A stretch of 55,505 nt of DNA, from IMG/VR virus record IMGVR_UViG_3300049259_000022, positions 1 through 55,505 of that record. The stretch is one strand, 5' to 3'. Below are positions 8,890-37,501 of the stretch, in pieces. The notes below the pieces were generated by a model. It saw only the letters and a program-made list of their open reading frames with translations. It made no database searches and was not told where the DNA came from. Source of the DNA: a virus (Duplodnaviria > Caudoviricetes). A program made the position numbers and the translations under genes. Position 1 is the stretch's first letter. Each line of letters opens with the position of its first letter.

Positions 8890-8918
8890 AACCTATCATT
8901 TCCTACGAATTGTGCCAA
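8890..8918 (-). promoter_or_regulatory. SigA-type promoter, probably giving a leaderless mRNA
   Basis: TTGGCA-N17-TAGGTT, then 6 nt, then ATG 8883 with no Shine-Dalgarno. Confidence 0.55.
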
Positions 8919-12019: not shown

Positions 12020-12027
12020 AGGAACTC

Positions 12028-12854: not shown

Positions 12855-13081
12855 AGGTACGTACTCCAGTCTTCAGGATTGAGACCCATTCGCCTGAGGG
12901 TCCTTTTGAGCCAGGCTACATCGCCGCCCAGTCGGTGCATCCGTACGTAATTGCGGATGACGAGCTGGCGACGGATGGCATCGACATTGCGCGGCACGGA
13001 TTGACGGGTCGTCGCCTCCTCGAATGAGATGACATCCTTGCGATCCAGTCTGCGTCTGGGAGGTTTAGGATTCTGACGCAT
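12851..13081 (-). CDS. small basic hypothetical protein
   Basis: Overlaps neighbours in operon fashion. Confidence 0.55.
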   Translation of the reverse strand: MRQNPKPPRRRLDRKDVISFEEATTRQSVPRNVDAIRRQLVIRNYVRMHRLGGDVAWLKRTLRRMGLNPEDWSTYL

Positions 13082-13568: not shown

Positions 13569-13800
13569 GGTGAATCAGTCTCCAGTCTTGCTGTCCCTTG
13601 TCACGCTTTTCGACAAGCATGACCTTCGTCCTTGGGTACCATTTGTTGACTTGAGCGACGTAGTCGATAGCCGCTTCGTCTTCCTGTGGAACACTCGACA
13701 CATGGAGAACTACGAAGTTAATGCTGGTGTAGCGGTACCCGCATTGAGCTCCGAGTGGTACTCGATACGTCTTGTCCACAAAGTCACTGAGGAATGTCAC
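13423..13800 (-). CDS. hypothetical protein
   Basis: GTGA overlap with the upstream stop. Confidence 0.5.
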   Translation of the reverse strand: MTFLSDFVDKTYRVPLGAQCGYRYTSINFVVLHVSSVPQEDEAAIDYVAQVNKWYPRTKVMLVEKRDKGQQDWRLIHRVEEELAGLLPVSGGYSESEEDQPAPTQVPIVPATVPAIPVVPSIARP

Positions 13801-14315
13801 CTGAACGCCTCCACATCCTGGACAGAAACCTTATAGAGGTTGGCCAGTGTGTTTGCATCGAAGCCTGCGGCCAGGCCGTTGCGGATCTGCTTCTCAGTCT
13901 CAGCTGAAACGTTCGGCTTGCTGATATTCTTGAAGCCTTGCGGGGCGCGCAAGATGGGCAGCGGATTGTATCCGTTGCAGCCCACCGTATCAGGCATTGG
14001 CTCGCCAGTTGATGCCGCCTGATAGCGACGCAGGGCATGCTTGGCTACCGCGTTTGGCGCGTCATACCAGGGTGCCGACCATTGCTGGATAGCAAAGGCG
14101 ATCCCGCGCATCTCGCCCTGGAGGGATGTAAGTTCTCTGGCTTCAGCCCAAGGTGCCGTTACGGATGGTGTCATGACAGCTTTTTTGCTGAGGTACTCAG
14201 CGAGGAGCTCGTCCATCTTGTACCAGAGGATCTCGAACATCGTCGGTCCTACCTTCTGGTAGGTAATGGTATCGGAAGCCTTCACAACTCTTCCGATGTC
14301 TGTTGGCTGCGGCAC
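13797..14315 (-). CDS. protein with C-terminal helix-turn-helix
   Basis: SAETEKQIRNGLAAGFDANTLANLYKVSVQDV has an HTH pattern; RBS AAGGAG. Confidence 0.7.
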   Translation of the reverse strand: MPQPTDIGRVVKASDTITYQKVGPTMFEILWYKMDELLAEYLSKKAVMTPSVTAPWAEARELTSLQGEMRGIAFAIQQWSAPWYDAPNAVAKHALRRYQAASTGEPMPDTVGCNGYNPLPILRAPQGFKNISKPNVSAETEKQIRNGLAAGFDANTLANLYKVSVQDVEAFR

Positions 14316-14367
14316 GGGTCTCCTTAACTCGCTAAGGGTAAAAATATACTACCGAAATTTTCCAAAC

Positions 14368-14383
14368 ATGATAGCACTATCAT
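14368..14383. promoter_or_regulatory. palindromic operator-like site ATGATAG-CA-CTATCAT
   Basis: Perfect 7-bp arms in an AT-rich intergenic patch; related copies at 36399-36411 and 36872-36883. Confidence 0.55.
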
Positions 14384-14392
14384 TGAGTCTAA

Positions 14393-14670
14393 CGAAAGCC
14401 GGAACCACCTGACGAGAAGGTCCCCGTGAGGGGCTCCGGTTGGTTCCGGCTTTCGGTCAGCAGTTTCGAGCTTGGCTAGCACGCTCCAGGGAAGTGCTGA
14501 CTCAACCTGACCACTATGAGTTTTACGAGTCATCCTTTACAGGGACTTCTCGCGCCCCCGCGCCGTTGGTCAACAAGCTTGGGGCAGGACCGGTACAGTG
14601 GTCATCGGTCCTGTCTGACACTGCCTGCTGTGGCCGCACGGGGTCTGTGAGACGGCACGAGCAGGCAGTG
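14393..14670 (-). ncRNA. candidate structured non-coding RNA(s)
   Basis: No credible ORF; consecutive stems 14393-14407/14441-14455, a multibranch segment ~14468-14580, 14585-14613, and 14619-14629/14660-14670. Confidence 0.4.
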
Positions 14671-14672
14671 AA

Positions 14673-15086
14673 TCAGGCAGCGGCTGGTTCCGCTTCGGCC
14701 TTCGCGGTCGACTTCTTGTGATCGTGTCCGAGCTTGTCGTGGTTCAGATCGGTGTTATGCCAGGCCAGCGCCTGCTCTGGCGTCATGGCCTCGATGGCCT
14801 CGACCTCGTAGCCGTGGCGGTCCACGAGGTGCTGACGGATGTTGTCGAGGCTGGCGGGCAGCATGGACTTGCGCGTGATCTTCTTGACCACGGCCGCCGC
14901 CTCGATCGAATCGATGTCAGACGGCAGGACGATGATGGAACCCTTACCCTTGGGCTTGAAGGCGACACCCATCGTGGACGCAGCCTCAACCTTGCCCTCG
15001 CCGGACGACGCGGCATACTCGCCAGTCAGGACGATGTTGACATTCTTGCCAGCGTAGTCGGCGAGTGTGTTCGGGTCGACAGACAT
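14673..15086 (-). CDS. hypothetical protein, possible Sm/LSm-like N-terminal domain with His-rich C-terminus
   Basis: LADYAGKNVNIVL...EGKVEAA...IIVLPSDIDSIE resembles the Sm/SH3-like pattern; RBS AAGGAG; strongly biased codons. Confidence 0.65.
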   Translation of the reverse strand: MSVDPNTLADYAGKNVNIVLTGEYAASSGEGKVEAASTMGVAFKPKGKGSIIVLPSDIDSIEAAAVVKKITRKSMLPASLDNIRQHLVDRHGYEVEAIEAMTPEQALAWHNTDLNHDKLGHDHKKSTAKAEAEPAAA

Positions 15087-15117
15087 ATCTTTTCTCCTTG
15101 GAGGCGACGTTACTTCG

Positions 15118-15190
15118 TGGCGGGAGTGGGTCTCGATCCCACGACTTCCGGATTATGGGTCCGGCGTTCTGCCTGCTGAACTATCCCGCG
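15118..15190 (-). tRNA. tRNA-Met(CAT), atypical initiator-like
   Basis: Cloverleaf: acceptor GCGGGA/TCCCGC with C1xC72, D stem GTTC/GAAC, anticodon stem CCGGA/TCCGG with loop CCCATAA, T stem GTGGG/CCCAC. Confidence 0.85.
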
Positions 15191-15304
15191 TCATCGTCGG
15201 AGGATGACTACGGGTAGCCCGCAACCGCCACCCCAGGCATCCTCCGACGGGGCAATCATGCCCGATCACCCCGCATCCGTCCAGCCACGAGCGGGCGTCG
15301 GGTG

Positions 15305-18211
15305 CTATCGGTGTATTCGGGTTAGTTCGCCCTCAAGGTGCTTGACGACTTTACCAATGTCACCCTTGTTGTCGATCCGTACAGTGTCCAGGCCATAACT
15401 CTTGGGTGAATCAGTTCCGACTCCTACACCAACGAGCACGATACCCAAACGCTTATAGGTTTCGATCTCGCGCTTGAGGACTTCGAGCTCATCCTCGTAG
15501 TTTGCCGCAGGCATCTCGCCATCAGTGTAGTACAGCAAGATCTTGTCGGTCGCATCAGTCATCATCAGACGCTTCCGCAGGAACTCGAGATTGTGGCCGT
15601 CCAGGTTGGTCTCAACGGCGTGCAGCCAGGAGAGACCTTCCTGTTGCTTCTCGTTCCACGGATCAGTCCAGCCCTTGATCTGATTCATCACCATTTCGAA
15701 GTCTGGCTCTACGTCATCGTTACCCTTACGACGAGCTTGCATGTACGCCTCGCCAACCTCGGCAGTGTGCGCCCAGACCTCGAAGGCGATACCCATACGG
15801 TGCAGGAGTTCAGACTGGGCGAACATTGCCTGCTTCGTGACCACCATCGTCTTGCCGAGGTGCTGCGACCAGGAACAATCACCAGCGACGATGACTGCAT
15901 AGTCACGCTTCTTCGGACGATCCCGCTTCTTGTAGAGACGATCGTCGTCACCCTTCCAGGCGCGCTTGCCGAGCGCTCGCCCATCGAGCTTACCTCGCTT
16001 GAGGTTGCGCGCATCTCGAGTACGCCTGTTATCCGAGAATACCCTACTCATCTCGAACATGGCTGGCTGCAGGATGTCTTCCGGAGTCCGGAGTATGTCC
16101 CACTGGTCGCGACCCTGACGGTCCGTACCTCCGATGCGGATAGTCAGGTCGATGGATTCACGCATGCCTTTCCAGGCTTCACACCGTCTGTCATCCTTCG
16201 GCCAGGTATAGACCCTAAGGTTGGAAACGCTAGCCGTTGGCGCATCGAAGTGCTTGTTCTGCACGATCGCCTTATCGACGGCCTGTTCTACGGCAGGGTC
16301 TGCACCCTGTAAGGCTGGCATATGCTCATCGTCATCGTGAGTGTGTCCAGTGAAGTCCTGGATCAACTCAGCAACATCATCAGCGGAACCGTGGTCAGGA
16401 AGATCCTCTGATTCTGGCTCAGGAGTTCCTGTTCCACTATCTCCGCTGAGACTCGCCTCTGTATTCGGTGCGACGTTTGCCTCATCAGGAGTGGCCAGGT
16501 CCGAAGTCGTTTCGCCTGATCCATCATCGTCAACTGGCGATCCAGGGTCGCCAGATCCCACAGACTCAGATCCTGACTCAGATTGAGGAGCAGGTGAACC
16601 TCCCGCCTCGCTTCCGGTTTGATCAGCTCCATCTGTAGACTCTCGTCCAGGATCCTCCAGAGGTTCAGCTGGTCCGGCCTCGGTGGAATCGGATACGTCG
16701 TCTCCTTGATCACTTTCGTCAGACGCGCCGCCATCGCCTCCGGTCCCGGAAGGATCAGCTTGTTCTTCAGGTTCGGTTCGAGTACCTTCTCCTGGTGAAT
16801 CTTCTGCATCGCTTCCAGGATCAGGTTCTGCTTCTGAGGTAGGGTCAGCTTCTTCTTCTTCGGAGGGTTCGCCTGAGCCTCCACCAGCTTCTCCAGGCTC
16901 GCTACCTCGTTCCCCAGCTTCACCAGGATCTTCGCCGTCTCCGTCGCTGTCTGATCCGCTGCTTGATGGCTTGGGAACTCCAGCGTCTGAAGTCTCGCAA
17001 GATCCTTCGTCATGCTCTGTGCTCGGAGTTCCAGATCCGTCCAGATCCTCGTCACCTGTTGATCCGTTCCCGGACCCACCAGGATCTTGTTCAGTGCCGT
17101 CTGCGCCTTCTTTAGATGATTCCTCAAACCCTCCATCGTCAGCGGAACTACCCTGATCGCTGGAGTCATCAGCTGTCCCTTCGTCCCCTTCGGAGGAGTC
17201 ACTGCCACCTGATTCTTCCTTTGGCTCGGGTTCATCCTTGTCATCTTGCTCTTCGTCCTGTGGCGGGTCAGGCGGTGGCGGCGGTGGCTCGTATGGAGGA
17301 GGTTCTGGCATATCTTCGGGTGGCTCGCAGTAACCAAGCTCCCAGAGGCGTACGAGGCACTCAATGGTGAGCGCTGCGATCTCGAGCGCACTGCCGGATC
17401 GGTTGACTCGAAGGCAGACATCCTGCAGGATCGGATCTTCAAGATCCTGTTTAACCTTGTCGTGAAGCTCGCCTAGACCAAACCCCTCAGCCTTCCAAAG
17501 CAATCCGATGATGATCTGAGCATTGAGTGGGCGCTCGGACCAGCGGATCACCTCGCCGTCCAGGTCTACGGACCCTACTGTCGACATACGCTCGGCTGCA
17601 GACGCGAACATCTTACGAACGCCAGGACGAGCCTGGAACATCTTAATATCGATCCGAGCGTCCTCGAGAGCCATGATCGTCAGGCCAAGGAACGGTGACA
17701 TCTTGAACATCATCACCTGAGGATCATCGCCCCACTGAACCTTACGCATGCCTGCTTCTAGGTGCGCTCGGGCGATGGGGTTCTGTGCGTACATCACGGC
17801 GCGACGAAGTGCAGTCTGCTGCTGATCGGGCGTGGACTTCTGAAATGACCCTCCGACGATATGCGAGATCTCGTGAGTGATGCTTCTCTCGACCATCTCC
17901 CTGGCCGAGCAGGCGGGGCAGGTCAGGTGTCCAGCGGCGTTCCGGCGGTCGCACTGGTTGCGGATGTGCGGGGACGGATCGCCTAGCAACAGCGGGGGAC
18001 GGTAGTAGATCGTGGTGCCGTCCGTGCGGGGTGTACCGCCCGACAGCACCACGCGTACGGCCGGATTACCGGTCAGAACGCGAGCGAACGCGGTCCACAG
18101 GTATTCCATGTTCTGGAAGGTCTTAACTGCCCGTCGAGCCCACTCGTCTCGCTCTTCAGGAGCCAACCGCTCGATGCGGTCAGTGAGATGGAGCTCAAGT
18201 GTGTCGGTCAC
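15305..18211 (-). CDS. CobT-like vWA domain protein with N-terminal HExxH domain and long acidic linker
   Basis: TDGTTIY...THEISH...LEDARID N-domain; MIDAS DCSWS and YTDG; ~300-aa D/E/G/S/P-rich linker. Confidence 0.85.
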   Translation of the reverse strand: MTDTLELHLTDRIERLAPEERDEWARRAVKTFQNMEYLWTAFARVLTGNPAVRVVLSGGTPRTDGTTIYYRPPLLLGDPSPHIRNQCDRRNAAGHLTCPACSAREMVERSITHEISHIVGGSFQKSTPDQQQTALRRAVMYAQNPIARAHLEAGMRKVQWGDDPQVMMFKMSPFLGLTIMALEDARIDIKMFQARPGVRKMFASAAERMSTVGSVDLDGEVIRWSERPLNAQIIIGLLWKAEGFGLGELHDKVKQDLEDPILQDVCLRVNRSGSALEIAALTIECLVRLWELGYCEPPEDMPEPPPYEPPPPPPDPPQDEEQDDKDEPEPKEESGGSDSSEGDEGTADDSSDQGSSADDGGFEESSKEGADGTEQDPGGSGNGSTGDEDLDGSGTPSTEHDEGSCETSDAGVPKPSSSGSDSDGDGEDPGEAGERGSEPGEAGGGSGEPSEEEEADPTSEAEPDPGSDAEDSPGEGTRTEPEEQADPSGTGGDGGASDESDQGDDVSDSTEAGPAEPLEDPGRESTDGADQTGSEAGGSPAPQSESGSESVGSGDPGSPVDDDGSGETTSDLATPDEANVAPNTEASLSGDSGTGTPEPESEDLPDHGSADDVAELIQDFTGHTHDDDEHMPALQGADPAVEQAVDKAIVQNKHFDAPTASVSNLRVYTWPKDDRRCEAWKGMRESIDLTIRIGGTDRQGRDQWDILRTPEDILQPAMFEMSRVFSDNRRTRDARNLKRGKLDGRALGKRAWKGDDDRLYKKRDRPKKRDYAVIVAGDCSWSQHLGKTMVVTKQAMFAQSELLHRMGIAFEVWAHTAEVGEAYMQARRKGNDDVEPDFEMVMNQIKGWTDPWNEKQQEGLSWLHAVETNLDGHNLEFLRKRLMMTDATDKILLYYTDGEMPAANYEDELEVLKREIETYKRLGIVLVGVGVGTDSPKSYGLDTVRIDNKGDIGKVVKHLEGELTRIHR

Positions 18212-18516
18212 TTACGCTCCTCCGGATTATAGCAGATGATGCACTCGTCGTGACGAACATCATTAGCACGATACCAGCAGGTACCGTTAGGCGAGTCCTT
18301 GCAGGGCCAGACTGTACCCATAGTCGGACGGTTATTGAGACCGAAGAACTTCTGAGCCTCTCCTTCGACCTTCTCTCTAGTGAGTCTGATATCCTGATCG
18401 AGCTTGGAGGTGACTATGTAGCGAGCCGATATCATGTCAGCGATGTCACTCGTAAGGCGCTGCATCCTGTTACTGTGACGCTTCAGGCCCGGTGTACTAC
18501 TTCCCATCGTTCTCAT
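18208..18516 (-). CDS. hypothetical zinc-finger protein
   Basis: C..SP.G.C.Y...CIIC..PEERK. Confidence 0.6.
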   Translation of the reverse strand: MRTMGSSTPGLKRHSNRMQRLTSDIADMISARYIVTSKLDQDIRLTREKVEGEAQKFFGLNNRPTMGTVWPCKDSPNGTCWYRANDVRHDECIICYNPEERK

Positions 18517-18712
18517 CCTCTTCCAGGGGCACCATGATCAACTCGACTTCGTAGACGGAGATGATATACTGGTTGCCCTTCTCGTCGCACACCAGTATCG
18601 TGGCCTGGGAGCGAGACCTTTTATGAAACCACTCCATCCATTCGCCGACGGTCCAGGGGTGCTCGACGAAGATCTGCTTCTGGGACTTTAAGTGCACAAT
18701 TGCGCGAGGCAT
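18497..18712 (-). CDS. small hypothetical protein
   Basis: Start trimmed to ATG 18712 (MPRAIVHLK) after AGGAG. Confidence 0.55.
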   Translation of the reverse strand: MPRAIVHLKSQKQIFVEHPWTVGEWMEWFHKRSRSQATILVCDEKGNQYIISVYEVELIMVPLEEDENDGK

Positions 18713-18713
18713 C

Positions 18714-19172
18714 TCACTCCTCCTGTTCCACGGTCTCAGCGCCAGGTTTCTGTGGAGGTACTGGTACGATGGGCACGGAGATCGTCTGTCCCGGTGCGAG
18801 TTGCGGCTCGACCGGAGCAATCTCCTTTGGTGCAGCCGCTGCCTTCTTGGCTGGATTGCCTGACCTAGCGGCCTTCTTTCGCGGGAGAGCCTTGCGCGGC
18901 TCTCTGGCCGGAACCTGCTTAACCGTGACTGCAACCTCTTGGCGAACCTCGCCTGTCTCTGCGACCTGGTCGAAGTACCGATCGAAGGTCTCGGGGTCCT
19001 CGGTGATCAGTTCAGCCATAGTGTGCAGCGCCTCGCGCTGAGCCTTGAGCTCATCGTCCAGCTGTGCATACTCGTAGGGCGCTTCGGGATGTTTCACCTT
19101 CTTTACGGCCGCCGCATTGAGCTGGTTGGCGGTCGGGGCAATCACTGCGCTGATGCGCTTTGCTGTCGTCAT
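18714..19172 (-). CDS. hypothetical protein with basic Lys/Ala-rich segment
   Basis: RBS AGGAGG; PRKKAARSGNPAKKAAAAPK. Confidence 0.65.
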   Translation of the reverse strand: MTTAKRISAVIAPTANQLNAAAVKKVKHPEAPYEYAQLDDELKAQREALHTMAELITEDPETFDRYFDQVAETGEVRQEVAVTVKQVPAREPRKALPRKKAARSGNPAKKAAAAPKEIAPVEPQLAPGQTISVPIVPVPPQKPGAETVEQEE

Positions 19173-19190
19173 CTCGTCCTCCTGGAACGG

Positions 19191-19631
19191 TTATCGCTTC
19201 TCGGTTCTGCCTGGATCTGGGAACCTTGTGGCAGGCGGTGGGGGTGGTGGTGCAGGAAGAATCGGTATAGCCTTACGTTGACCAGACATGTTCGGCGCTG
19301 GAGGCAAGTGCATCATCTGTCCGTTGCGCATCTGGCGCAGGAAGTTTGGATTGCAGGCAGGATCAACGCAGTCCTTGACATCGTGTGACCAGGACTCCTC
19401 TGAGAACATCTCGTGCTCCATGCGGGCAATCGACCAGCGCACCTGGGGCCAGGAAAGCTTCGTGTTAAAGCGCTTCTGGTTAGGTGTACGGCGCTCGATC
19501 TTGTGCGGACGAGAAAGCCACAGAAGGCCGGACTTCATCCCATTCCAGATCAGCTCAATCCAGTTGTAGCAAATCTGGAGAATCCAGCCAATGACGAAGC
19601 AGGTACCAAAGATTATGATGTCAGCTGACAT
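19191..19631 (-). CDS. putative membrane protein
   Basis: N-terminal hydrophobic helix IIIFGTCFVIGWILQICY. Confidence 0.6.
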   Translation of the reverse strand: MSADIIIFGTCFVIGWILQICYNWIELIWNGMKSGLLWLSRPHKIERRTPNQKRFNTKLSWPQVRWSIARMEHEMFSEESWSHDVKDCVDPACNPNFLRQMRNGQMMHLPPAPNMSGQRKAIPILPAPPPPPPATRFPDPGRTEKR

Positions 19632-21165
19632 TACCCCTCACAGCCGTTAGGAGTGACTCGCGGGTCACTGGGTCAAGGTTGTTCGCCACAGCCTGTCGGT
19701 ATGCCTCGATAGGGCTGAAGTACCGCAGCGCTCGGGCTACCTTGATCTGTGGCCGCAAGCCCCAGGTGATCGACGCCAGCGGTCCGGCCTGGATCAGCCC
19801 ACGAATCTCGGTGGCAATGTTCATCACCATTTCGGCTTGCATGTTGTTCAGCTGCCAGCCATCGTGCGACACATGCTTCTGGATGATACCGAGCTCAACG
19901 GCATCCTCAGGCATCGGGATCTCGATGTGCATCAGCCGGTTCGTGTCGGCATCCGCCAGCGATTCTGCGCCCACATTACGAAGGTCCCAGGCTGGGTTCA
20001 TCGCGAAGCCCATGTACGTGAAGTCGGTGGGCCTAATCGTCTCGCCTACGTTGACATCCATGATGAGCTGCTTGGAGTTGTCGATCAGCGGCCGGAAGAA
20101 CTGCTGGACATCCTTTGGTCCGAGGTTCCACTCGTCCACACACAGCCAGCATATAGTCTGGTATGCTTGTACGAACCGACCATAGGAGAAGAAGGTCCCC
20201 TTCTCGGGTGAGAAGTGAGGTCGACCAGCCAGGTCGTCGAGTTCCGACGAGCCTGTGATCGTGAACCTCTCGAAGGGCATTCCGCACATCCAGGCTAGGT
20301 GACGGAACAGTTCCGTCTTGCCGGTACCAGGCTCGCCCCATACGCCAGGAGCCATGCCGAGCTTGGTGATGTGTACCGAGACCGCATACACGCCGCCGAA
20401 GTGATCGACATACTCGTCTGGGTGTTCCTTCTGGCCGCTGCGTGGGATCTTTGCCTGGGCAGCCTCGCCAAAGATACTGTCCGTGAAAATAGGGAGGTAG
20501 ATCTCCTGGCCGGGCGTCTGCTCGAAGTCGGGATCAGGGTTCTTGATCTCCCGCCATGCGATGATGCCCTGCGCCTTGTCTAGATCCGACAACTCCTTAT
20601 CAGAGTTGTAGTCCCTGGGGTCCCCAACGAGGAGGTCTGCGATCCCGGACGCCTCAGCTCCACCAAAGTTCTCCATGAGCTCAGGGAACAGCGTTACGCC
20701 GTTAGTAGACCTGTCGATCATCCCGGTCTGACCTTCAGTGCAAGCCTCAGCGGCGGCGCGAAGCTCAGTACCTAGAAGGAGTTCACCCTTCTTCTTGCAA
20801 AGAGGTGTCGTCCAGCTGAGTTCCTCCATGACCACATCCTCGGGCGCGTAGAACTTGCACGCGGCACACGAGGGAGGCTTAGAAACAATCGGCGGTACGC
20901 CACCAGAAGATGAGGCGAAGAGTCCGATGGCGATCGGAAAGACATTGACGGCCTTCTTCTGCGGACGCGCCTGTCCATACTGGTCACAAGTCGCCGCATA
21001 GAACTCTGCAAGCTTTCTTGTGCTTCGGTCGGGGAGTCCGATCTTTCCGAACACCTTGCCGTACCTGGCGCAGACTGGTGCACCGATCGACTTTCCGAAG
21101 TGCGTAGCGGCCTGTTGCTTCGTGAGATAACTCGGGCAGTTCTCACATGACAGTGCGGATGACAC
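19621..21165 (-). CDS. MoxR/CobS-family AAA+ ATPase with Cys-rich N-terminus
   Basis: Walker A GEPGTGKT, Walker B CVDEWN, AMNP sensor, NRL arginine finger. Confidence 0.9.
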   Translation of the reverse strand: MSSALSCENCPSYLTKQQAATHFGKSIGAPVCARYGKVFGKIGLPDRSTRKLAEFYAATCDQYGQARPQKKAVNVFPIAIGLFASSSGGVPPIVSKPPSCAACKFYAPEDVVMEELSWTTPLCKKKGELLLGTELRAAAEACTEGQTGMIDRSTNGVTLFPELMENFGGAEASGIADLLVGDPRDYNSDKELSDLDKAQGIIAWREIKNPDPDFEQTPGQEIYLPIFTDSIFGEAAQAKIPRSGQKEHPDEYVDHFGGVYAVSVHITKLGMAPGVWGEPGTGKTELFRHLAWMCGMPFERFTITGSSELDDLAGRPHFSPEKGTFFSYGRFVQAYQTICWLCVDEWNLGPKDVQQFFRPLIDNSKQLIMDVNVGETIRPTDFTYMGFAMNPAWDLRNVGAESLADADTNRLMHIEIPMPEDAVELGIIQKHVSHDGWQLNNMQAEMVMNIATEIRGLIQAGPLASITWGLRPQIKVARALRYFSPIEAYRQAVANNLDPVTRESLLTAVRGNVS

Positions 21166-27909: not shown

Positions 27910-28869
27910 TCAGCTCTTGCGAGCGCCCTTCGGCTGGCCGTCCTTGGCGTCGACCGGCTCGACGCCCTCGAGGGTGCACTTGCCGGAACGCGGGAACAGA
28001 CGGGCCGACACCGCACCCGGCGACGGAGCCTCGTTGCCGTACTCCTCCGAGTGGTGCGTGACGATCTGCGCGATGGTCAGGAAGTCGCCGGACGCCTTGT
28101 CCGCGAACGCCGCCTGAATGTGCTTGCCGATGTCCCGACGCGTGCCGGTGAAGGGGGCCTTCGGGCCGCCCCCGCCGCCACCCTTGACGCTCTTGCCCTG
28201 CGCCAGCTTCAGCGCACGCTGCGCCAGGGCCGACACCTCGGGCTTCTCGCCCTCGCCGGTGTACTTCGCCAGGGTGTCGACCTCGTTGACGGTCTTCTGC
28301 GCCAGCTCGTTGGCCTTGGTCTGCCAGTCGTCGGACACACCCTCCGGGACGTTCTGCGTCACGTAGCCGTACGCCAGCTGGAGACCGACAACCTGCTGCA
28401 CGAATGCCTCGGTCGGGTCGGACGGGGTCGCGTCGGCCTTCTTGCCCCCGCCGCGCGACTTGGTCAACTCCTGGCGGATGGTGTTGAGCGCCCGAGCGTT
28501 CGGGATGTTGCCGTGCTCGGGGTCCAGGGCCTCCTTGACGCCCTGCTCGATGCTCGCCCGCACCTTGGCCTTGGCCTTCGAGCCGTCGAGCTCGTGGTAC
28601 GCCTTGATGACCGGCTCGAGCTGGGCGGGCGCGAGGGTGCCGGTGGACTGGTCCATCTCGGCCAGCGCGACCTTCAGGGCCTCGTCGAAGCCGGTGGTGT
28701 CGATGACCTCAGGCGCAGCGGCGGCCTGCGGCTCGGTGTTCTCGGTGTTCTGTGGGGTGCTCTGCGCCTGCTCGTCGGCTGGCGCGGTAGCCGTGGTAGT
28801 CACGGTCTCCTCCTTGTTAGATGCGGCGGCCTTCTTGGCAGCTGCCGTCTTGGTTGGCTGACGCGCCAT
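27910..28869 (-). CDS. putative DNA-binding protein with C-terminal winged-helix-like domain
   Basis: Lys/Ala-rich N-terminus; RRDIGKHI...FLTIAQI...SEEYG...PSPGAV; RBS AGGAGG; paralog of 33223..34014. Confidence 0.75.
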   Translation of the reverse strand: MARQPTKTAAAKKAAASNKEETVTTTATAPADEQAQSTPQNTENTEPQAAAAPEVIDTTGFDEALKVALAEMDQSTGTLAPAQLEPVIKAYHELDGSKAKAKVRASIEQGVKEALDPEHGNIPNARALNTIRQELTKSRGGGKKADATPSDPTEAFVQQVVGLQLAYGYVTQNVPEGVSDDWQTKANELAQKTVNEVDTLAKYTGEGEKPEVSALAQRALKLAQGKSVKGGGGGGPKAPFTGTRRDIGKHIQAAFADKASGDFLTIAQIVTHHSEEYGNEAPSPGAVSARLFPRSGKCTLEGVEPVDAKDGQPKGARKS

Positions 28870-31809: not shown

Positions 31810-32085
31810 CTAGTACTGACAGACTGCGATGATGTCGGACTCATAAGCCCAGATGTGGTTATTCTCGTCAATCTCGACCCACTTGCCCTCGCCGTCCTTG
31901 ACGAGGGCAGGCTCACCTTCCTCGCGAACACCTTCCCACCTGACTGGCTCGAGGTGCGTCCAGATCTCGGTGACTGCGGCTACCTCGGGGTGACCGTTGC
32001 GCAGGTAGCGAACAAGACTGCCCTCGGTGTACGTCAGGCTTGTACCGGGAATGGTGCGAGGCTCGGTTGCGCCTGGCTGGGTCAC
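31810..32085 (-). CDS. hypothetical protein
   Basis: GTGA overlap with the upstream stop. Confidence 0.55.
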   Translation of the reverse strand: MTQPGATEPRTIPGTSLTYTEGSLVRYLRNGHPEVAAVTEIWTHLEPVRWEGVREEGEPALVKDGEGKWVEIDENNHIWAYESDIIAVCQY

Positions 32086-32549
32086 TTGAACTCGCCCCTG
32101 TGGTATTTCTGGATCATGGTGCCGTCCATAGCAGAGGAGCTCCTGTACAGCACCTCCCACTCGAGGCGCGTGACAGGCTTGGAGAACTTCCCGAAGGCAC
32201 CCTGCCAGACCGCGTCTCCGTAGTCACGCTGATGCTTCGGCAGGTTCATCCAGCGCGCCTGGTAATCAACCGGGCCAACCGGCGGCGTGGGCGGCGTGCG
32301 TGTGAGCTCCACGAGCTTCGAGACATGCAGGTACAGGTGCGGGTCACGCAGTACAGCGTCCATCAGGAGTGACTGGACCTCGTCACCGATCTCATCGCCA
32401 TTCTCGTCCAGATCCTGCGGGCTACTGTGCCCCGCCTGATACAGGAACTCCACAACCAACTCGGACGCCTCGTCAACGCGTTTCTGCGACAGGTCATCCA
32501 ACGCCACCCATTGGGCGGGCAACTTCGGCAGCTTCATGGTTCCATTCAC
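32082..32549 (-). CDS. hypothetical protein
   Basis: 155-aa ORF, first gene after a non-coding gap. Confidence 0.6.
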   Translation of the reverse strand: MNGTMKLPKLPAQWVALDDLSQKRVDEASELVVEFLYQAGHSSPQDLDENGDEIGDEVQSLLMDAVLRDPHLYLHVSKLVELTRTPPTPPVGPVDYQARWMNLPKHQRDYGDAVWQGAFGKFSKPVTRLEWEVLYRSSSAMDGTMIQKYHRGEFK

Positions 32550-33172
32550 CCCTCGTCATCTGTGGCCAGGTCATGGGGCTGGCCCACATGTCCATTCTAC
32601 GGCACACTGGTTAGGCTCTCCTAACAACCGATAGCATACACTTTACTATCGGTGACCAGAGTGTGACAGGCACAGCTAGTTGCCTAGCGCAACCAGTTAT
32701 CGCCTGGCCACGGTAGACAGTGTTCTACGCCGGGTGCCGGGGGTACGTCATGCCTGAACCAGGTGCCGTTGGGTGGTCGGCTAGAACATGGCCTGACTGG
32801 CCCGCAATGGGGGCTAGGAGACGCGTTCACGCCTTCCCGGTAGGTGGGGGCCGGTACGGGGGTTGAGTCCGCCAGGCGGGCACACACGGCGTGTGATGTG
32901 GGGACCGGTGGTGATGTCGGCGGGCTAGCGGCTAGGGCATGTGGTGATCGGGCCACAATGGGGCCGCTAGGGGGCGCTGGGCGGGTGATGCACACATGGG
33001 CGTAGGTGGCATGTAGCGACCCGTTAGGACGGCACGTAGGGGCTAGGCGTCAGGTGTGCATGAGGCGTGTGGATTGTCCACGGGATGCTGGACATTGCAT
33101 ACTGGATACACCAGGTGTGTCGGCGGGCACGGGGGTCGTATGCGGGAGACTGTATACAGTCACATGACAGAG

Positions 33173-33207
33173 ACAAACCCACCTGGCTGGTGACCAGGTG
33201 GGTTTGT
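33173..33207 (-). terminator. intrinsic terminator-like hairpin
   Basis: ACAAACCCACCTGG-N7-CCAGGTGGGTTTGT just after the stop at 33223. Confidence 0.7.
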
Positions 33208-33222
33208 TACTTACCTGATGGG

Positions 33223-34014
33223 TCAGGCGAGCCGGTAGCCCTTGACCTTGGCGTCGTTGACGACGGACTCGATGCCGTCCATCTCACGGCCGTACGCCGC
33301 ACCGATGGCACCGACCGAGGGCGAGTCGTCCGGACCGTACGCGTCGGACCGGTGGTTGCGCACCTGGGCGCAGGTCAGGATGGTGCCCTTGGGGGCCGCG
33401 TCCAACGCGGAACGGATGTGCGCCTCGACGGACCGCTGCGGGCCGGTACGACGCGAGCCGGACTTGACGACGGCCAACTTGGCGGCCAGGGACTGCGCCG
33501 ACTTGCGCTCGTCATCGGTCAGGTTCGTCAACCGCTCGAGCATGGCGTTCGTGACCTCGTCGCCGTGCGCCTCACGGAACGTGGCCCGTGCTGTGGCGGA
33601 TGCCATGGACAGCGCGGCCAGGTGGATCACGTAGCCGTCGGCGGGGTCAACCTCGACGGGTGCCTTGGTGGTCACCATGACGGCCAGCACGTCGCGCAGC
33701 ACGGCCAGCTTGTCCATGTTGAGCTCGTTCAGCGCGTCGGTCTGGAACTTGTTCCACGCGGACCGGATGGCGGCCTTGCCGGACTTGTCGGCGGACCGGT
33801 ACGCCTCGCCCACGGTGGCCACGTACGCGGCCTGGTCGGTCTCCCAACCGGTGGGAATGACGTAGGCGGGGGTAGCGGCCTGATCGGTCTCAACGGCCGT
33901 CACGGTGGCATCGGTGCCCTGTGCGTTCGGCGCGGCCTGGACGGGTGCCGGGGTCGCGTTCGGCGCGTCGGCGGGGGTGGAGGTGGTGCTGGCCTTGCGG
34001 GTACGTGCGGTCAT
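33223..34014 (-). CDS. putative DNA-binding protein, paralog of 27910..28869
   Basis: QRSVEAHI...ILTCAQV...SDAYG...PSVGAI; start ATG 34014 after AGGAG. Confidence 0.75.
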   Translation of the reverse strand: MTARTRKASTTSTPADAPNATPAPVQAAPNAQGTDATVTAVETDQAATPAYVIPTGWETDQAAYVATVGEAYRSADKSGKAAIRSAWNKFQTDALNELNMDKLAVLRDVLAVMVTTKAPVEVDPADGYVIHLAALSMASATARATFREAHGDEVTNAMLERLTNLTDDERKSAQSLAAKLAVVKSGSRRTGPQRSVEAHIRSALDAAPKGTILTCAQVRNHRSDAYGPDDSPSVGAIGAAYGREMDGIESVVNDAKVKGYRLA

Positions 34015-34071
34015 GATCTCGGCTCCTAGCCGGTAGGTGGTGCGCGGCGGGCACGGTGCCCGCCTAGAACC

Positions 34072-34101
34072 AGAATGGGTGCTGATGGGGTGCGGTGTCA
34101 A
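34072..34101 (-). promoter_or_regulatory. SigA-type promoter
   Basis: TTGACA-N18-CATTCT upstream of ATG 34014. Confidence 0.55.
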
Positions 34102-34169
34102 GCTAGTCCGTATGGTGGACTGGTGGGACTGTTGCCGGGGGCAACGAATTACCCCCGGCGTAGTGCGTA

Positions 34170-34577
34170 CTACGGGATGACTGGCAGCCAGTCGTAGTCG
34201 TTACCGGTCCAGACGCGCAGGCATGAGTCCTCGGTGGGGCATGTGCGTGTCGGGTGCCACTCCGGAGGGTTGCTGATGGGTGCCTGCTGGTCGTGGACGA
34301 TGCGGTCCACGTAGGCGGACATCTGGACGGCTCCTAGGCCGGACACGCACGCCACCATGACGCCCAGGGCCAGCCATCCGGCCAGGCGGGTGATGAACGA
34401 CGGGCGGGAGCCCCGACCGGACTGGCGGCCCATGCGGCGCATCATGCGTCGGTGCTGGCGACGGGACTTGCCCGTGTCGTGGGCGGCCATGGTGCGGGCG
34501 ACGTGAGGGTAGGACTGGGGATCCGGCATGGTGGATGCGGCGGTCAGGTGGTTCTGGCGGGTGGTGTGTGTGCGCAT
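34170..34577 (-). CDS. putative membrane protein
   Basis: Arg-rich stretch followed by TM LAGWLALGVMVACVSGLGAV; CPTEDSC motif. Confidence 0.65.
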   Translation of the reverse strand: MRTHTTRQNHLTAASTMPDPQSYPHVARTMAAHDTGKSRRQHRRMMRRMGRQSGRGSRPSFITRLAGWLALGVMVACVSGLGAVQMSAYVDRIVHDQQAPISNPPEWHPTRTCPTEDSCLRVWTGNDYDWLPVIP

Positions 34578-34641
34578 GATCTCGGCTCCTAGCCGGTAGG
34601 TGCCCCGCTACGGGGCTGATGGGTGGTCGGTGGGTGATTGG

Positions 34642-34680
34642 GTGTGTGGGCACCTGATAGGCCGGTAGGTGCCCACACAC
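34642..34680 (-). terminator. hairpin after the Thr/Tyr-rich gene
   Basis: 14-bp stem GTGTGTGGGCACCT/AGGTGCCCACACAC. Confidence 0.6.
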
Positions 34681-34695
34681 AGCGTGTGGTGGGTG

Positions 34696-35862
34696 CTAGA
34701 TGGAGTAGTGCGCGTCCAGGGTGTCGGAGTAGGCGGGGTAGTGGACGTTGGCGGGCTCGTAGGTGTCGTAGGGCATGCCGATCACTAGGGCGGCGTACGC
34801 CTGGCCGTCGGTGCGGAACGGGTGACCGAACGCGGCCATGAGGTCGGTGTAGTCGTGCACCATGGCTGCCACGTCGACGCGTAGGACCGTGCGGTAGGTG
34901 TCGCGGTGCATGGGTACGCGGGTGACTACGCGGGTGTAGGTGGCGGGGGCTACGGGGCCGAGCTCGCCGTAGTTGAATCGGTGCGACGTGCCGGTGAACT
35001 CGTTGCCGTTGGCATCGATGTGCTCGGCGTGCGTGTGGCCGAACGGGGCGATGCACGCGCCGTAGCCCGCGTAGGTGTGGCTGCACGTAGGTGCCCCGGC
35101 TTGCGCCCAGGAGACGGCCGTGACCAGGGTTGCCTCGAGGTTGCGTGCGTAGGTGCGGTAGTAGGCGTGGTCTGCGGCGACGTAGGTGATGGTGTCGCCG
35201 GTACCGTCGTCGGTGGCAACCCAGGCGTGGTTGACGTCGGTGCGCGTGGTGACGTAGGTGCCGTCGTCGTAGGTGTAGGTGCGGGTGACGATGCCACCAC
35301 CGGCGATGGCGGTGTAGTCGGTGCACGTGGACCGTACGCCGTCCATGTACCGGGCCAGGCTAGTGGTACCGGTGTAGGTGGTGTAGGGAGTCATGGTGGC
35401 ACCAGCGGCCTGCGGGGTGGTGTTGGTGATGATGCGGACGGGTGCCAGGTCGGTGTCGAAGGTCGGTGTCGCGGCGTGTGCGGGAACGGTCGGCGCACCG
35501 TAGGTGTCGTGTCCGGGCATGGGGGACGCGTAGCCGTAGCCATCAGCGGTCTGGATGAACGACCTGGCCGCGTCCACGGTGGTGATGGCAACGCCGTAGC
35601 GGGTGCGTAGGGCGATGGGCTCGTCGGTGTAGGTGGGTGCGGGAGGCGGGGTAGGCACGGTGCCGTCTGATTGGCCATCGATGGTGTCGCACACGATCTC
35701 GTAGGTGTCGGTGCCGGGGGTGGCCTGTGCGCCGTAGCAATGGCCGCTAGGGGCCTCGTGGGTACGCATCCAACGGTGTGCGCCGTCGTAGGTGCGGTAG
35801 CCGCTACGGACAACCACGGGTGCGGTGTGGTCGGTGGTGTGGGTGTGTGTGTGGATCGCCAT
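34696..35862 (-). CDS. Thr/Tyr/His-rich, lysine-free hypothetical protein
   Basis: 388-aa ORF with C-ending codons, AGGGG SD-like site upstream and a hairpin after the stop. Confidence 0.65.
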   Translation of the reverse strand: MAIHTHTHTTDHTAPVVVRSGYRTYDGAHRWMRTHEAPSGHCYGAQATPGTDTYEIVCDTIDGQSDGTVPTPPPAPTYTDEPIALRTRYGVAITTVDAARSFIQTADGYGYASPMPGHDTYGAPTVPAHAATPTFDTDLAPVRIITNTTPQAAGATMTPYTTYTGTTSLARYMDGVRSTCTDYTAIAGGGIVTRTYTYDDGTYVTTRTDVNHAWVATDDGTGDTITYVAADHAYYRTYARNLEATLVTAVSWAQAGAPTCSHTYAGYGACIAPFGHTHAEHIDANGNEFTGTSHRFNYGELGPVAPATYTRVVTRVPMHRDTYRTVLRVDVAAMVHDYTDLMAAFGHPFRTDGQAYAALVIGMPYDTYEPANVHYPAYSDTLDAHYSI

Positions 35863-36025
35863 GGTTGTGCCCCTAGGTGTGTAGGTAGGTGGTGGTGCAT
35901 GTGTGTGCCTAGGAACAACGTAGGCGTCAGGCGTAGGTGTGTGTAGGTGCGCGCACCTTATTCACAAGATCGATACCACATCGTGACCTGACGATCAGTC
36001 ATGTGGTGGTGGCTGTGTGTGCTTA

Positions 36026-36316
36026 GTTGCGTTAGGCAACAGTATGAGGAGTTGTTGCAAAGGGCAACGAAAGTCTATCTATTCTTGCCTTTGGCAACGA
36101 CTTTGTTGTAGACATCCCACAACTCGATGCCTTGGGCAACAATGCACCTTATTGATGCCTTTGGCAACGATTACGCGTGCCGTAGGCAACTGTTGCTAAA
36201 GGCAACCGATAACGTACATTATCGGCGGGTTATATGATGCCTTATGCAACGAGTTTGATTGCCGATGGCAAACACCTTGGTTGCCCTTGGCAATCGATAT
36301 GGTTGCACCTGGCAAC
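36026..36316. repeat. array of 11 imperfect 15-bp palindromes, consensus GTTGCC-NNN-GGCAAC
   Basis: Starts at 36026, 36054, 36084, 36126, 36154, 36176, 36192, 36236, 36258, 36280 and 36302. Confidence 0.9.
36206..36225. other. symmetric dif-like tyrosine-recombinase core site
   Basis: CCGATAA-CGTACA-TTATCGG: inverted arms around a 6-bp spacer. Confidence 0.5.
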
Positions 36317-36389
36317 AAAGAAAATTCCGACCGGGGGTATGTGCGCGCGCCCTTAGGCGCCTCGTCCACATATCAAACTTTTCGGCTCT

Positions 36390-36960
36390 AAGACTATAAT
36401 AGTACTATCATCTATCTGTACAACAGGTCCCGTCCATGTGAACGATCTAGCGTCCAGGAGACAAGAAGAGGACTGGTCACTGTAGTATATATATATATAT
36501 ATATATTACTTATATTTCTTACATTTATTTGGGGTATATTTCCCGGGTGATTTCTAGGCGTGTTTCCGCAGGTCACGGCCATGTTCTCGGTTTGTTCCGG
36601 TTTCCTCGGACACCATACATCCCCGGCACCTTGTTCATCAGGCGACAGTCTTCCCTATGGCCGCATTCACTCAGCAGTTGTCGCCTCTTTTTCTTCTCTC
36701 TTTCTTGGTGCTCTTGGGTATCTATTAGGACCCCGAAATATTAAATTCGATTTTCGGCCCAAAGGTGCCCCGTGACCTGCACAGATGTCCGAAAATGACC
36801 GCCCGGATTTATTCCCCATAAAATGCTTCTGGGCACCCCACTTTATCGCCCGGACTAAACTGACTGTAGGTTAGTGCTATCATTAATCCACCCTAAAAAC
36901 CACCAGTTGAATAAAATGGGGTATAAATCCGGGCGATACTCCCCGAAAAAACCCTTACGG
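36390..36960. other. AT-rich non-coding region, candidate replication origin or genome-end region
   Basis: (TA)~10 tract near 36486-36506; inverted repeats 36801-36819/36916-36934 (18/19) and GCAGGTCACGG/CCGTGACCTGC; no credible ORF. Confidence 0.5.
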
Positions 36961-37021
36961 GTCACTTTATACTCGTTCTGTAGTGTTTTTGATGCCTTGT
37001 TAGACTCGTTTCTGGGCAAAG

Positions 37022-37066
37022 AAACAGCCCTACAGACACCTGTTTCGAGGTGTCGTAGGGCCGTTT
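37022..37066 (-). terminator. terminator-like hairpin ending the primase operon
   Basis: GCCCTAC-A-GACACC / GGTGTC-GTAGGGC stem flanked by AAAC/GTTT. Confidence 0.6.
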
Positions 37067-37076
37067 CTAGGGTGTG

Positions 37077-37307
37077 TTAGGGAGCCTGTTCGCCTGTTCC
37101 TTGGCCGGTTGAGGGGGTGCTATCGACCAGAATCTGAAAGGCGACCCCGTCCAAAATACACGGACACTCGACAGAATCGTCCAGATGATGGCACTTCATG
37201 GGCGCAAGAATGCCCCCATCGTGCTCAGCTCCGAGGTGTGTGCACTCTGGACAGGGGATAAAGTCCCCGATGATGATGTACTGGATTTTCTTGGCTTGAT
37301 TTGTCAT
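37077..37307 (-). CDS. small Cys/His-rich protein
   Basis: CPECTH...H...C...CPC; ATGA overlap. Confidence 0.55.
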   Translation of the reverse strand: MTNQAKKIQYIIIGDFIPCPECTHLGAEHDGGILAPMKCHHLDDSVECPCILDGVAFQILVDSTPSTGQGTGEQAP

Positions 37308-37501
37308 CTGTTTGGACCTTCCCAGGGTTTGGCCTGTAGGAATTCTGTATAGTTGGGGTACTGGCCTGCCCAGTCGCGGAGCCAGCCTGCAATGCACCAA
37401 AGTCCGGCTGGAGTGGTGGTTGCGCCGTTACCCTGGCAGTTCATAGTTGTCTGATCGGTGTTGATTGAGTCGGCTCCACAGCCCGACATCACACACTTCA
37501 C
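37304..37501 (-). CDS. small hypothetical protein
   Basis: Coupled at both ends. Confidence 0.5.
   Translation of the reverse strand: MKCVMSGCGADSINTDQTTMNCQGNGATTTPAGLWCIAGWLRDWAGQYPNYTEFLQAKPWEGPNR

Follow-up and report, generated by a model that had tools for sequence, protein, structure and literature searches.

A conserved three-gene phage block of unusual DNA composition, almost free of GAAG/CTTC and probably adjoining a genome end

Introduction

In phage T5, only the part of the genome that is transferred first is reported to be open to attack by EcoRI and by clustered regularly interspaced short palindromic repeats (CRISPR) systems, and noncoding DNA with many repeats and palindromes comes after this first-step region (bioRxiv 10.1101/866236). 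For Murciavirus (Autographiviridae), escape from type I restriction is described when the motif is missing from the first-entering region and present elsewhere (PMC12455610). This study concerns a region of phage DNA that may be of a similar kind, namely, a conserved minus-strand unit of three genes (here referred to as gA, gB, and gC, and together as the block) in which the tetramer GAAG/CTTC is almost absent. The region spans positions 32837-36464 of a 55,505-nucleotide (nt) stretch of viral DNA (IMG/VR record IMGVR_UViG_3300049259_000022; Duplodnaviria, Caudoviricetes), and this whole stretch is referred to as the window.

Avoidance of short words has also been described for the protospacer adjacent motif (PAM) of CRISPR systems, where the selection against short motifs acts on both strands and is reported as genome-wide and mild (PMC4246573). 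According to the same source, AAG is the type I-E acquisition PAM, and AAG, ATG, AGG, and GAG allow interference in E. coli; GAA is the PAM of type I-C systems, AAG is the type I-E PAM in Gammaproteobacteria, and the single actinobacterial type I-E system included there has AAY, not AAG (PMC4246573). A further point of comparison is given by short words that are concentrated on one strand. Phage T7 carries arrays of short repeats beside its terminal repeats, and Chi sites are short one-strand words.

The likeness of the present locus to T5 lies in a terminal stretch that would enter and be expressed first and is then followed by repeat- and palindrome-rich noncoding DNA, as reported for T5. 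It differs in that two-step entry belongs to T5 and no relatives of T5 A1/A2 were identified here, in that repeats of ~190-1180 bp, not of about 10 kb, are reported for relatives of this phage (PMC5559632), and in that the avoidance concerns three-letter words or overall composition rather than one defined 6-bp site. For Murciavirus, both the host system and the motif it reads had been identified and were tested; the present phage is a siphovirus of Mycobacteriales-type hosts. Compared with PAM depletion, the loss described here is local and up to tenfold, and it is not independent of the flanking base, as ACTT is preferentially kept in the Rhodococcus phages ReqiDocB7 and Perlina. T7 arrays and Chi sites are resembled in that short one-strand words cluster near a genome end, but the array at this locus, made up of the heptamer CACCTAC, is 3 kb long and runs through a gene. 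In the literature searched on leading-region or PAM depletion in actinobacteriophages, PMC12455610 was the sole relevant match, and no account was found of an AAG/CTT-poor zone that is rich in one-strand repeats and encodes a lysine-free protein.

Results

GAAG/CTTC occurs 773 times in the window, and the sole copy within 32837-36464 lies at position 35458, as had been stated in a preliminary description of this DNA that was made from the letters alone. The tetramer is the commonest one in the rest of the genome (772 copies), and at that rate 54.0 copies would be expected in the 3628-nt interval. The two longest GAAG/CTTC-free gaps measure 2625 and 1007 nt, and the third longest measures 523 nt. 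Other observations of the preliminary description were also reproduced. Gene gC (33223-34014) contains no copy, and its paralog at 27910-28869, which has an equal guanine-cytosine (GC) content overall and at third codon positions (GC3), contains 13, near its own synonymous-shuffle expectation of 14.4. All 13 Lys-AAG codons are preceded by C, and 8 of the 10 Phe-TTC codons are preceded by G, only 26% of third positions being G. The G/T skew was recovered as a G+T fraction of 0.592 on the plus strand of the interval vs. 0.515 elsewhere, as was the richness in GTAGGT (23 copies in the interval, 13 in the rest) and in CTAG (16 and 59 copies, respectively).

Relatives for which DNA of this region is available were found at three metagenomic loci, L004, L005, and L006 (L009 is the same contig as L006). 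Gene order, including the next gene, is conserved in all three, and the identity to the window's proteins is 60-65% for gC and about 49-57% for gA; an alignment of gC against viral contigs returned the L006 contig again and nothing else. L004 has no GAAG/CTTC in its first 2824 nt, L005 has 4 copies in 2744 nt, and L006 has long free gaps of 1399, 751, 889, and 832 nt within its positions 9230-13112, while the flanking DNA in these loci mostly contains 5-16 copies per kb. The three relatives share a GC content of 66-70%, a C-rich sense strand, and enrichment of ACCTAC and CTAG. At fourfold-degenerate sites, the same base is found in a fraction of 0.50-0.63, vs. 0.36-0.44 if the sites were independent, which is close to saturation. 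Since agreement at these sites is near the chance level, each lineage has kept the signature for a long time. The desert is real, it is found in related soil phages, and it is a symptom of an oddly composed, conserved three-gene block.

The deficit of GAAG/CTTC depends strongly on the null model that is applied. Base composition predicts 22.5 copies in the interval, a first-order Markov model predicts 9.2, and a second-order one predicts 6.1. When synonymous codons of the three block genes were shuffled, 1 copy was observed vs. 8.9 expected (z -4.1), which makes GAAG/CTTC the most depleted of 136 tetramer classes, followed by CCCA (-3.7) and CTGC (-3.5), and the 1261 nt of noncoding DNA in the interval hold none vs. 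3.5 expected from dinucleotide shuffles (P 0.023). The strictest null fixes the protein sequence, the codon usage, and all dinucleotide counts. It gave 1 vs. 5.8 in the window block; in the three relatives the deficit was gone (2 vs. 3.0, 3 vs. 3.2, and 4 vs. 4.0), and the four loci pooled gave 10 vs. 16.0 (z -2.4), i.e., rank 14 of 136. Because GAAG was picked from 136 classes after inspection of a single genome, the residual deficit in the window alone is not convincing. The tetramer is not unique either. Relative to the rest-of-genome rate, AGAG/CTCT (2 vs. 18), AAGA/TCTT (4 vs. 32), and AAGC/GCTT (4 vs. 29) are depleted by a similar factor, and CTCC/GGAG, CTGC/GCAG, and GAGC/GCTC are depleted as strongly as GAAG/CTTC or more. 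The proposal that GAAG/CTTC itself is the unit under selection is thus not supported; as this tetramer is made up wholly of avoided steps and outnumbers all others elsewhere in the genome, the loss is most conspicuous in it.

The steps avoided are those from purine to purine and from pyrimidine to pyrimidine, which are scarce in the block on both strands (AA/TT about 0.5, AG/CT 0.65-0.8, GA/TC 0.66-0.9), and the alternating steps are common (AC/GT 1.4-1.5, CA/TG 1.3-1.45, and TA 1.1-1.8, the last being 0.62 elsewhere). The noncoding DNA of the block, with AA/TT 0.53, GA/TC 0.66, AC/GT 1.40, CA/TG 1.45, and TA 1.32, departs in the same way from the rest of the genome (0.89, 1.29, 0.96, 1.08, and 0.62, respectively), and the same dinucleotide signature is seen in the noncoding parts of L004 and L006. 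Purine-purine and pyrimidine-pyrimidine steps have a combined share of 0.37-0.44, vs. a genome mean of 0.505 with a standard deviation (sd) of 0.032. Between gC and its paralog of the same GC content, AG/CT is 0.67 vs. 1.10 and AC/GT is 1.41 vs. 1.07, and this is seen in all four gC copies. The composition of the block is set at the DNA level, not by the proteins. The depletion on both strands, in coding and noncoding DNA alike, and its persistence in relatives that are near saturation point to a cause at the DNA level, and in this respect the preliminary description holds.

On the sense strand of the four loci, words in which CT is not followed by A are purged synonymously: CTCC (9 vs. 34.1), CTTC (3 vs. 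19.7), CCTC (17 vs. 37.8), CCTT (4 vs. 19.4), CTTG (1 vs. 13.4), and GCTT (0 vs. 10.7). Sense-strand CTT itself occurs 4 times in the 11 block genes of the four loci vs. 37.0 in synonymous shuffles, the figures for three control genes being 5 vs. 8.8. AAG is lost at the protein level because gA is without lysine. General avoidance of palindromes in the block was considered and rejected, as CTAG, CGTACG, ACGCGT, and ACCGGT are present or enriched, and Z-DNA was rejected as well, since 11 of the 37 alternating purine-pyrimidine runs of at least 10 nt lie in the block and all are at most 15 nt long. Eight AG...CT-type palindromes have 7 copies in 13.4 kb of blocks vs. 347 in 85.3 kb of flanks, which is consistent with evasion of a host defence, yet follows from the dinucleotide shift alone.

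A second component of the signature is the heptamer CACCTAC (GTAGGTG on the plus strand). It has 29 copies in the window, and 23 of these, all on the minus strand, lie within 3.1 kb at 32840-35949; 15 are in gA (14 of them in frame as Thr-Tyr), 8 are in noncoding DNA, and none is in gB or gC. The noncoding count compares with an expectation of 0.5 and the gA count with one of 9.5, and gA has 14 Thr-Tyr pairs vs. 5.3 expected from its amino acid composition. CACCTAC is the top heptamer in all four blocks, with sense counts of 23, 25, 11, and 30 and antisense counts of 0, 1, 0, and 1 (89 and 2 when summed), and its parts CTAC (z +7.6) and CCTA (z +7.2) are still enriched under the strictest null. 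No mention of CACCTAC/GTAGGTG in a relevant context was found in the literature searched, where the 8 matches were unrelated.

A protein search with the helicase of the window matched 114 phage records, i.e., 104 of Gordonia, 6 of Rhodococcus, and 4 of Tsukamurella phages, all with less than 60% identity. Gene order agrees with that of Gordonia cluster CS phages (e.g., SteveFrench) and of the Rhodococcus phages ReqiDocB7, Perlina, and Trogglehumper; the phage belongs with the Gordonia cluster CS phages and the Rhodococcus phages ReqiDocB7 and Trogglehumper. These are treated as one loose group in a 2026 paper, where short direct terminal repeats, an orphan tyrosine recombinase, a rightward left arm, and a leftward right arm are given as group features (PMC13313380).

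In the annotated phages, the zone that corresponds to the block was taken at the equivalent place on the map, which lies downstream of the genes for primase and helicase. The ratio of observed to expected AAG/CTT, based on base composition, is 0.33 in the window block vs. 1.25 in the rest, and 0.19, 0.29, and 0.26 in L004, L005, and L006, respectively. It is 0.33 in the zone of ReqiDocB7 vs. 1.43 elsewhere, and 0.34 vs. 1.35 in Perlina, AAG/CTT being the most depleted of 32 trimers in both zones. ReqiDocB7 has a GAAG/CTTC-free gap of 2376 nt (68196-70572) in a 2.5-kb unannotated region, where GC content is 0.53 and the share of purine-purine/pyrimidine-pyrimidine steps is only about 1.5 sd below the locus mean, and Perlina has such a gap of 1571 nt. 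Against a first-order expectation, AAG/CTT in ReqiDocB7 is 3 vs. 28 and 3 vs. 25 per kb, and on one strand AAG (23 vs. 68.8) and CTT (28 vs. 60.3) are depleted symmetrically. Milder troughs are present at known right ends (last 2-6 kb), with 0.50 in SteveFrench and 0.70 in Kvothe, and in Trogglehumper the ratio falls from 0.8 to 0.32 toward the right end (0.32-0.59 over the last 4 kb). At the left end of SteveFrench (first 841 nt), GAAG/CTTC is not depleted (8 vs. 5.1 expected). AAG/CTT is the word that is shared by the wider phage group.

The zones of ReqiDocB7 and Perlina have the appearance of an early control region, as they carry several copies of a TTGACAT promoter-like box along with GAAATG...CATTTC palindromes, GGATCG repeats, and runs of TATATA. 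In ReqiDocB7 (locus L011), positions 68370-70852 are unannotated and contain eight GGATCG-type repeats and a repeated ATTTAGGG; this region is likely an origin and early control region. In the right-terminal noncoding DNA of SteveFrench (locus L007, 73920-75687), all 10 copies of GTACCA are on the same strand, and this stretch also contains TTCACTATCACAAAGA-like units and CTTAGGTTAGCC units.

The position of the block relative to the genome ends can be judged from SteveFrench, whose first 191 nt recur as its last 191 nt; Monty-type phages are reported to have direct terminal repeats of 191-192 bp (PMC4982279; PMC5559632). The window has the gene order of SteveFrench, i.e., CobT-like gene, ATPase, phrog_6708 gene, small genes, ends, small genes, helicase, primase, and terminase, and the SteveFrench ends have the small genes that follow the helicase on one side and the last small genes of its right arm on the other. 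The equivalent interval in the window is 32538-37076, and the block lies inside it. By synteny, the block thus probably adjoins the physical genome end of a siphovirus with short direct terminal repeats. Counted from the right end, it would then come first, with transcription directed inward, and the later minus-strand genes have the same direction.

The block has a GC content of 0.67-0.70 and a GC3 of 0.87-0.91, vs. a GC content of about 0.57 in the rest of the genome; its sense strand is C-rich, with C at 54-70% of third codon positions, and the unit has noncoding DNA on either side (685 nt and 1.2 kb). The open reading frame gA (34696-35862, minus strand; GC3 0.87) encodes 388 amino acids (aa), rich in Thr, Tyr, His, and Asp, with no lysine in any of the four copies known as DNA. 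It has a conserved Cys/His cluster (C260, H262, C270, H276, and H281), and the alignment of seven homologs besides the window's own protein, with its invariant Cys and His residues, indicates a real protein family. No Pfam family above the cut-off, PHROGs family, or PADLOC family was matched by gA, a protein search against the phage collection gave no match, a search with gA alone against viral contigs found no relative, and its structure model (mean predicted local distance difference test score 44) is unusable, the Atlas being without a usable match. The open reading frame gB (34170-34577, minus strand; 135 aa, with 1 Lys and 16 Arg) contains a hydrophobic stretch, LAGWLALGVMVACVSGLGAV, which by eye is a candidate membrane segment; weak relatives were found in L004 and L006, and its Lys count is 0 or 1 across copies. 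The third gene, gC (minus strand, 263 aa), is a distant paralog (26% identity, E-value 6e-10) of 27910-28869, a member of phrog_6708, and matches phrog_6708 with its C-terminal part only (E-value 5.5e-13). Its C-terminal 70 aa may form a winged-helix domain, which is a lead only, as the resemblance to Atlas models has a template modeling score below 0.6. Neither gB nor gC matched a Pfam family above the cut-off or a PADLOC family, and a PHROGs match was obtained for gC only.

Upstream of gA, the leader (35863-36025, minus strand) is dense in CCTAC/CCTAG words, and its ribosome-site context ACCTAGGGGCACA...ATG is conserved in the alignment. An identical 28-nt element, CACCTACCGGCTAGGAGCCGAGATCATG, which contains AGGAG, ends in the start codon of gB (34575-34602, minus strand) and in that of gC (34012-34039, minus strand). 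These are the 2 exact copies in the window, and none was found in 100 shuffles; in L004 (2248-2275), the 25 nt preceding the gC ATG are identical. A third CTAGGAGCC occurs within gB at 34329, and the in-frame ATG after it may serve as an internal start. Cluster K mycobacteriophages have start-associated sequences, which include AGGAG, just upstream of several start codons; here, there are two full copies only, and their flanks differ. Directly after gC lies a terminator-like hairpin with a T-rich tail (33179-33193, minus strand); such sites were no commoner in the scan than in shuffled sequence, and it is the position that counts. The 685 nt of noncoding DNA after gC (32538-33222, minus strand) have the block composition down to about 32840 and are ~71% identical to L004 and L006. 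The module thus consists of the leader, gA, gB, gC, the terminator-like hairpin, and about 650 nt of conserved noncoding DNA.

Just outside the block, on its upstream side, an array of TTGC-N5-GCAA palindromes extends over 36026-36320 (7 by the pattern TTGC-N1-9-GCAA), and the related GTTGC-N3-7-GCAAC occurs as single copies at 34131, between gB and gC, and at 32679, after the block. An (AT)n run is present at about 36486-36506. The palindromes and this run are candidate operators or a candidate replication origin near the primase and helicase genes. A promoter-like sequence (TGTACA, 18 nt, TATAGT; 36393-36422, minus strand) that points into the block is a consensus match only, the promoter scan having given 3 sites vs. 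1.9 in shuffles. A search of 32000-37500 against Rfam gave nothing beyond chance, and no integrase, transposase, or other mobile-element gene was found beside the block.

The window is the entire virus record, yet it is probably an incomplete genome, ~20 kb shorter than its relatives (74-84 kb), that spans the junction of both ends. From 41459, the plus strand encodes both terminase subunits (small and large), the portal, the protease, the major head protein, and one tail protein, and the remaining ~41 kb carry minus-strand genes, among them those for an AEP-type primase, a helicase, a CobT-like protein and its ATPase, a sliding clamp, a DnaQ-like exonuclease, and a short tyrosine recombinase. 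Among the 30 proteins scanned (of ~80 genes called), none was recognised as a tape-measure, tail-fibre, or lysis protein. At the DNA level, the phage collection gave no match to the block (near and distant modes) or to window positions 1-20000 (near mode), and scans of bacterial genomes with gA and with the tyrosine recombinase gave none either. The record behind L001 (59% complete) has neither gA nor gC and stops where gA would start. Its end and the start of L004, which come from different collections, overlap by exactly 127 nt, so that L001 and L004 are evidently pieces of one ~74.5 kb phage (45.3 + 29.3 kb), with the break at the block's upstream edge. The length of 127 nt is a common assembler word length.

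The sites GCCGGC, CCGCGG, and GGGCCC have 0 copies in the ~99 kb of the window, L001, L004, L005, and L006, vs. 43.5, 32.0, and 21.8, respectively, expected outside the blocks. This loss looks like classic restriction-site avoidance across the genome and is not special to the block, which does not agree with the local restriction-site avoidance suggested earlier. A second composition anomaly was noted at window positions 7001-8000, inside the gene 7097-8425 (phrog_5686), where GC content is 0.677, G outnumbers C on the plus strand (403 vs. 274), and the GAAG/CTTC count is ordinary (11).

Discussion

Given the observed composition of the block, its conservation, and its map position, the reading preferred here, which is held tentatively and with somewhat less than even confidence, is that the block is a terminal early module under direct DNA-level selection that possibly evades a host defence before the remaining genome enters. 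Located just inside the right terminus and transcribed inward, the block would enter the cell and be expressed first. The purge would then take out short words recognised by a DNA-attacking system of the host, while the remaining genome is still unexposed or comes to be protected later; this step is doubtful. Within the genes, sense-strand CTT would be dropped through the choice of neighboring codons, and AAG by avoiding lysine. A candidate reader is a type I CRISPR system with a PAM such as AAG, for which the short length of the word and the strand symmetry of its loss fit; the flank preference and the AAY of the actinobacterial system do not. Since the block is found at the end position of its relatives, the idea that it enters first is reasonable, and to this extent the earlier suggestion of a first-injected region that avoids a site can be kept, with the qualification that GAAG is not the unit avoided.

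Several points weigh against this interpretation. The end placement comes from synteny. Among the contigs of the sequencing runs, one spans the whole stretch at flat depth, with no molecule ends reported, and the coincident ends of L001 and L004 had to be rejected as a terminus, as an overlap of exactly 127 nt marks a break in the assembly graph. In the clade of the window, the AAG/CTT deficit is accounted for by dinucleotides (2/5, 4/5, 13/9, and 12/15 per kb, observed/first-order expectation), so that a general composition shift is enough to explain the loss there, and the trough in Kvothe is weak. In ReqiDocB7 and Perlina, the remaining CTT mostly follows A (26 of 43 and 20 of 41, respectively, vs. 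21-22% elsewhere), CTT after C or G is nearly gone, and the avoided word is nearer to (C/G)CTT, a flank dependence that is not predicted by a simple three-letter PAM. A genome-wide purge such as that of GCCGGC, CCGCGG, and GGGCCC is evidently possible for these phages, and a purely local purge of AAG/CTT remains unaccounted for. Lastly, no anti-defence gene was recognised among the block proteins with Pfam, PHROGs, or PADLOC.

The strongest alternative, although a somewhat unlikely one, is that the desert is a by-product of composition without any selection on words, i.e., that the block is a foreign or unusual module with a host-like GC content, an extreme bias to codons that end in C, little Lys, Glu, and Phe in its proteins, and CACCTAC in large numbers. 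The deficit is indeed mostly of low order, given the fall in expectation from the rest-of-genome rate to the Markov models, and the dinucleotide-preserving null removes it in the relatives. The GC content of the block is near the 67.8% given for Gordonia terrae (PMC5559632), its third codon positions are rich in C, and CACCTAC-like units alone would produce high AC, CA, and TA together with low AA, AG, and GA, as seen. In tests for a donor island, the GC content and the oligonucleotide signature differ from those of the genome, which fits an imported island; the lack of patchy presence and of flanking mobility genes and a signature undecayed in four lineages speak against import. Composition also does not readily explain why the signature extends to noncoding DNA and persists in four lineages whose synonymous divergence is near saturation, or why gB and gC of the window, which lack CACCTAC, still avoid CTT (0 vs. 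1.1 and 2.4 expected). In ReqiDocB7 and Perlina, the loss is specific to AAG/CTT and occurs at an ordinary GC content and with near-normal dinucleotides, and this trimer-specific loss beyond dinucleotides argues against the alternative.

It is decidedly unlikely that the heptamer is the primary feature and that the other aspects of the composition are collateral. In this case, CACCTAC would be a one-direction signal read from the DNA end, with a Chi-like site that restrains an end-processing helicase-nuclease, a loading or direction signal for a translocase in entry or packaging, and a site for a phage protein, e.g., gC, as candidates. The concentration of most copies on one strand within 3.1 kb, the excess in noncoding DNA, the top rank in the blocks of the window and its relatives, and the enrichment of CTAC and CCTA under the strictest null favor such a role. 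Chi, as read by RecBCD, needs the G/T-rich strand to end 3' at the DNA end, and the G/T-rich complement of CACCTAC belongs to the strand whose 3' end would be at the terminus placed by synteny on the gA side. SteveFrench has a one-strand repeat of its own, GTACCA, in its right-terminal noncoding DNA, and no Chi site is known in mycobacteria as far as the account in PMC12848934 goes. On the other hand, many of the in-frame Thr-Tyr pairs of gA are at conserved positions, so that protein constraint may hold the copies there. Moreover, the repeats differ between phage groups, which would not be the case for a shared host Chi, and the loss of AAG/CTT in ReqiDocB7 and Perlina, whose zones carry other repeats, is left unexplained.

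Selection on an early messenger RNA (mRNA) is very unlikely to be the cause. Such an mRNA would avoid words that resemble the 3' end of 16S ribosomal RNA (rRNA) (CUCC, CCUC, CCUU, and CUUC), would keep AGGAG unpaired, and would be G-poor and unstructured. CTCC, CTTC, CCTC, and CCTT are indeed the top-depleted sense words of the four loci, sense-strand GAAG is not significantly depleted (7 vs. 12.8), and the 28-nt start element contains AGGAG. However, the dinucleotide signature is equal on both strands and extends about 350 nt past the terminator-like hairpin, ReqiDocB7 loses both AAG and CTT on the same strand, and AAGC/GCTT, which is unlike the rRNA tail, is among its most depleted words.

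Avoidance of host topoisomerase I sites is highly improbable. The mycobacterial enzyme is described as sequence-specific, with the site C(G/T)CTT(C/G), which contains CTT and is cut between the two T residues (PMC6379724). The tetramers that tile this site (CGCT, GCTT, CTTC, and CTTG) are all depleted on the sense strand, and the zones of the window, L004, L006, ReqiDocB7, and Perlina have 0 or 1 full sites each, while 6-8% of CTT elsewhere is in a site. Yet 0-1 sites follow from the loss of CTT alone (1-3.4 expected), CCTT, which is outside the site, is depleted as strongly, TCTT, which is within it, is tolerated in ReqiDocB7 and Perlina, and there is no evident reason why such sites would be harmful in the block region only. 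The suggestion that GAAG/CTTC is the recognition site of a restriction/modification system or nuclease and is kept out of the block is scarcely credible and largely refuted, since its support in the window (the synonymous and dinucleotide-preserving shuffles and the C-AAG and G-TTC contexts) comes from a word picked post hoc, is not repeated in the relatives or in the pooled rank, and is accounted for equally by a flank-independent loss of AAG/CTT.

A bolder generalization of a terminal early module under DNA-level selection, which is rather unlikely, is that Gordonia/Rhodococcus-type siphoviruses with direct terminal repeats have a conserved right-end "leading zone" of 2-6 kb from which AAG/CTT-containing words are purged on both strands because this DNA would lie unprotected in the cell until the countermeasures of the phage act. 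In the clade of the window, the pressure would have reshaped the proteins, giving rise to a lysine-free family of 388-580 aa and to heptamer-bearing Thr-Tyr pairs, and the words would point to an uncharacterised defence of Mycobacteriales, such as a type I CRISPR PAM or a short-motif nuclease.

As a matter of method, a tetramer desert needs a null that keeps dinucleotides and codons, as well as relatives, before it is read as site avoidance. The one-strand heptamer is a candidate for direction-dependent DNA-end processing in Mycobacteriales, for which no Chi is given as known in the account cited above (PMC12848934). If the zone is the first-entering DNA, counting a three-letter word would locate the leading end in a large group of actinobacteriophages and hint at the defence that is evaded. 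If true, the lysine-free gA family would be a clear case of selection at the DNA level that dictates the composition of a protein.

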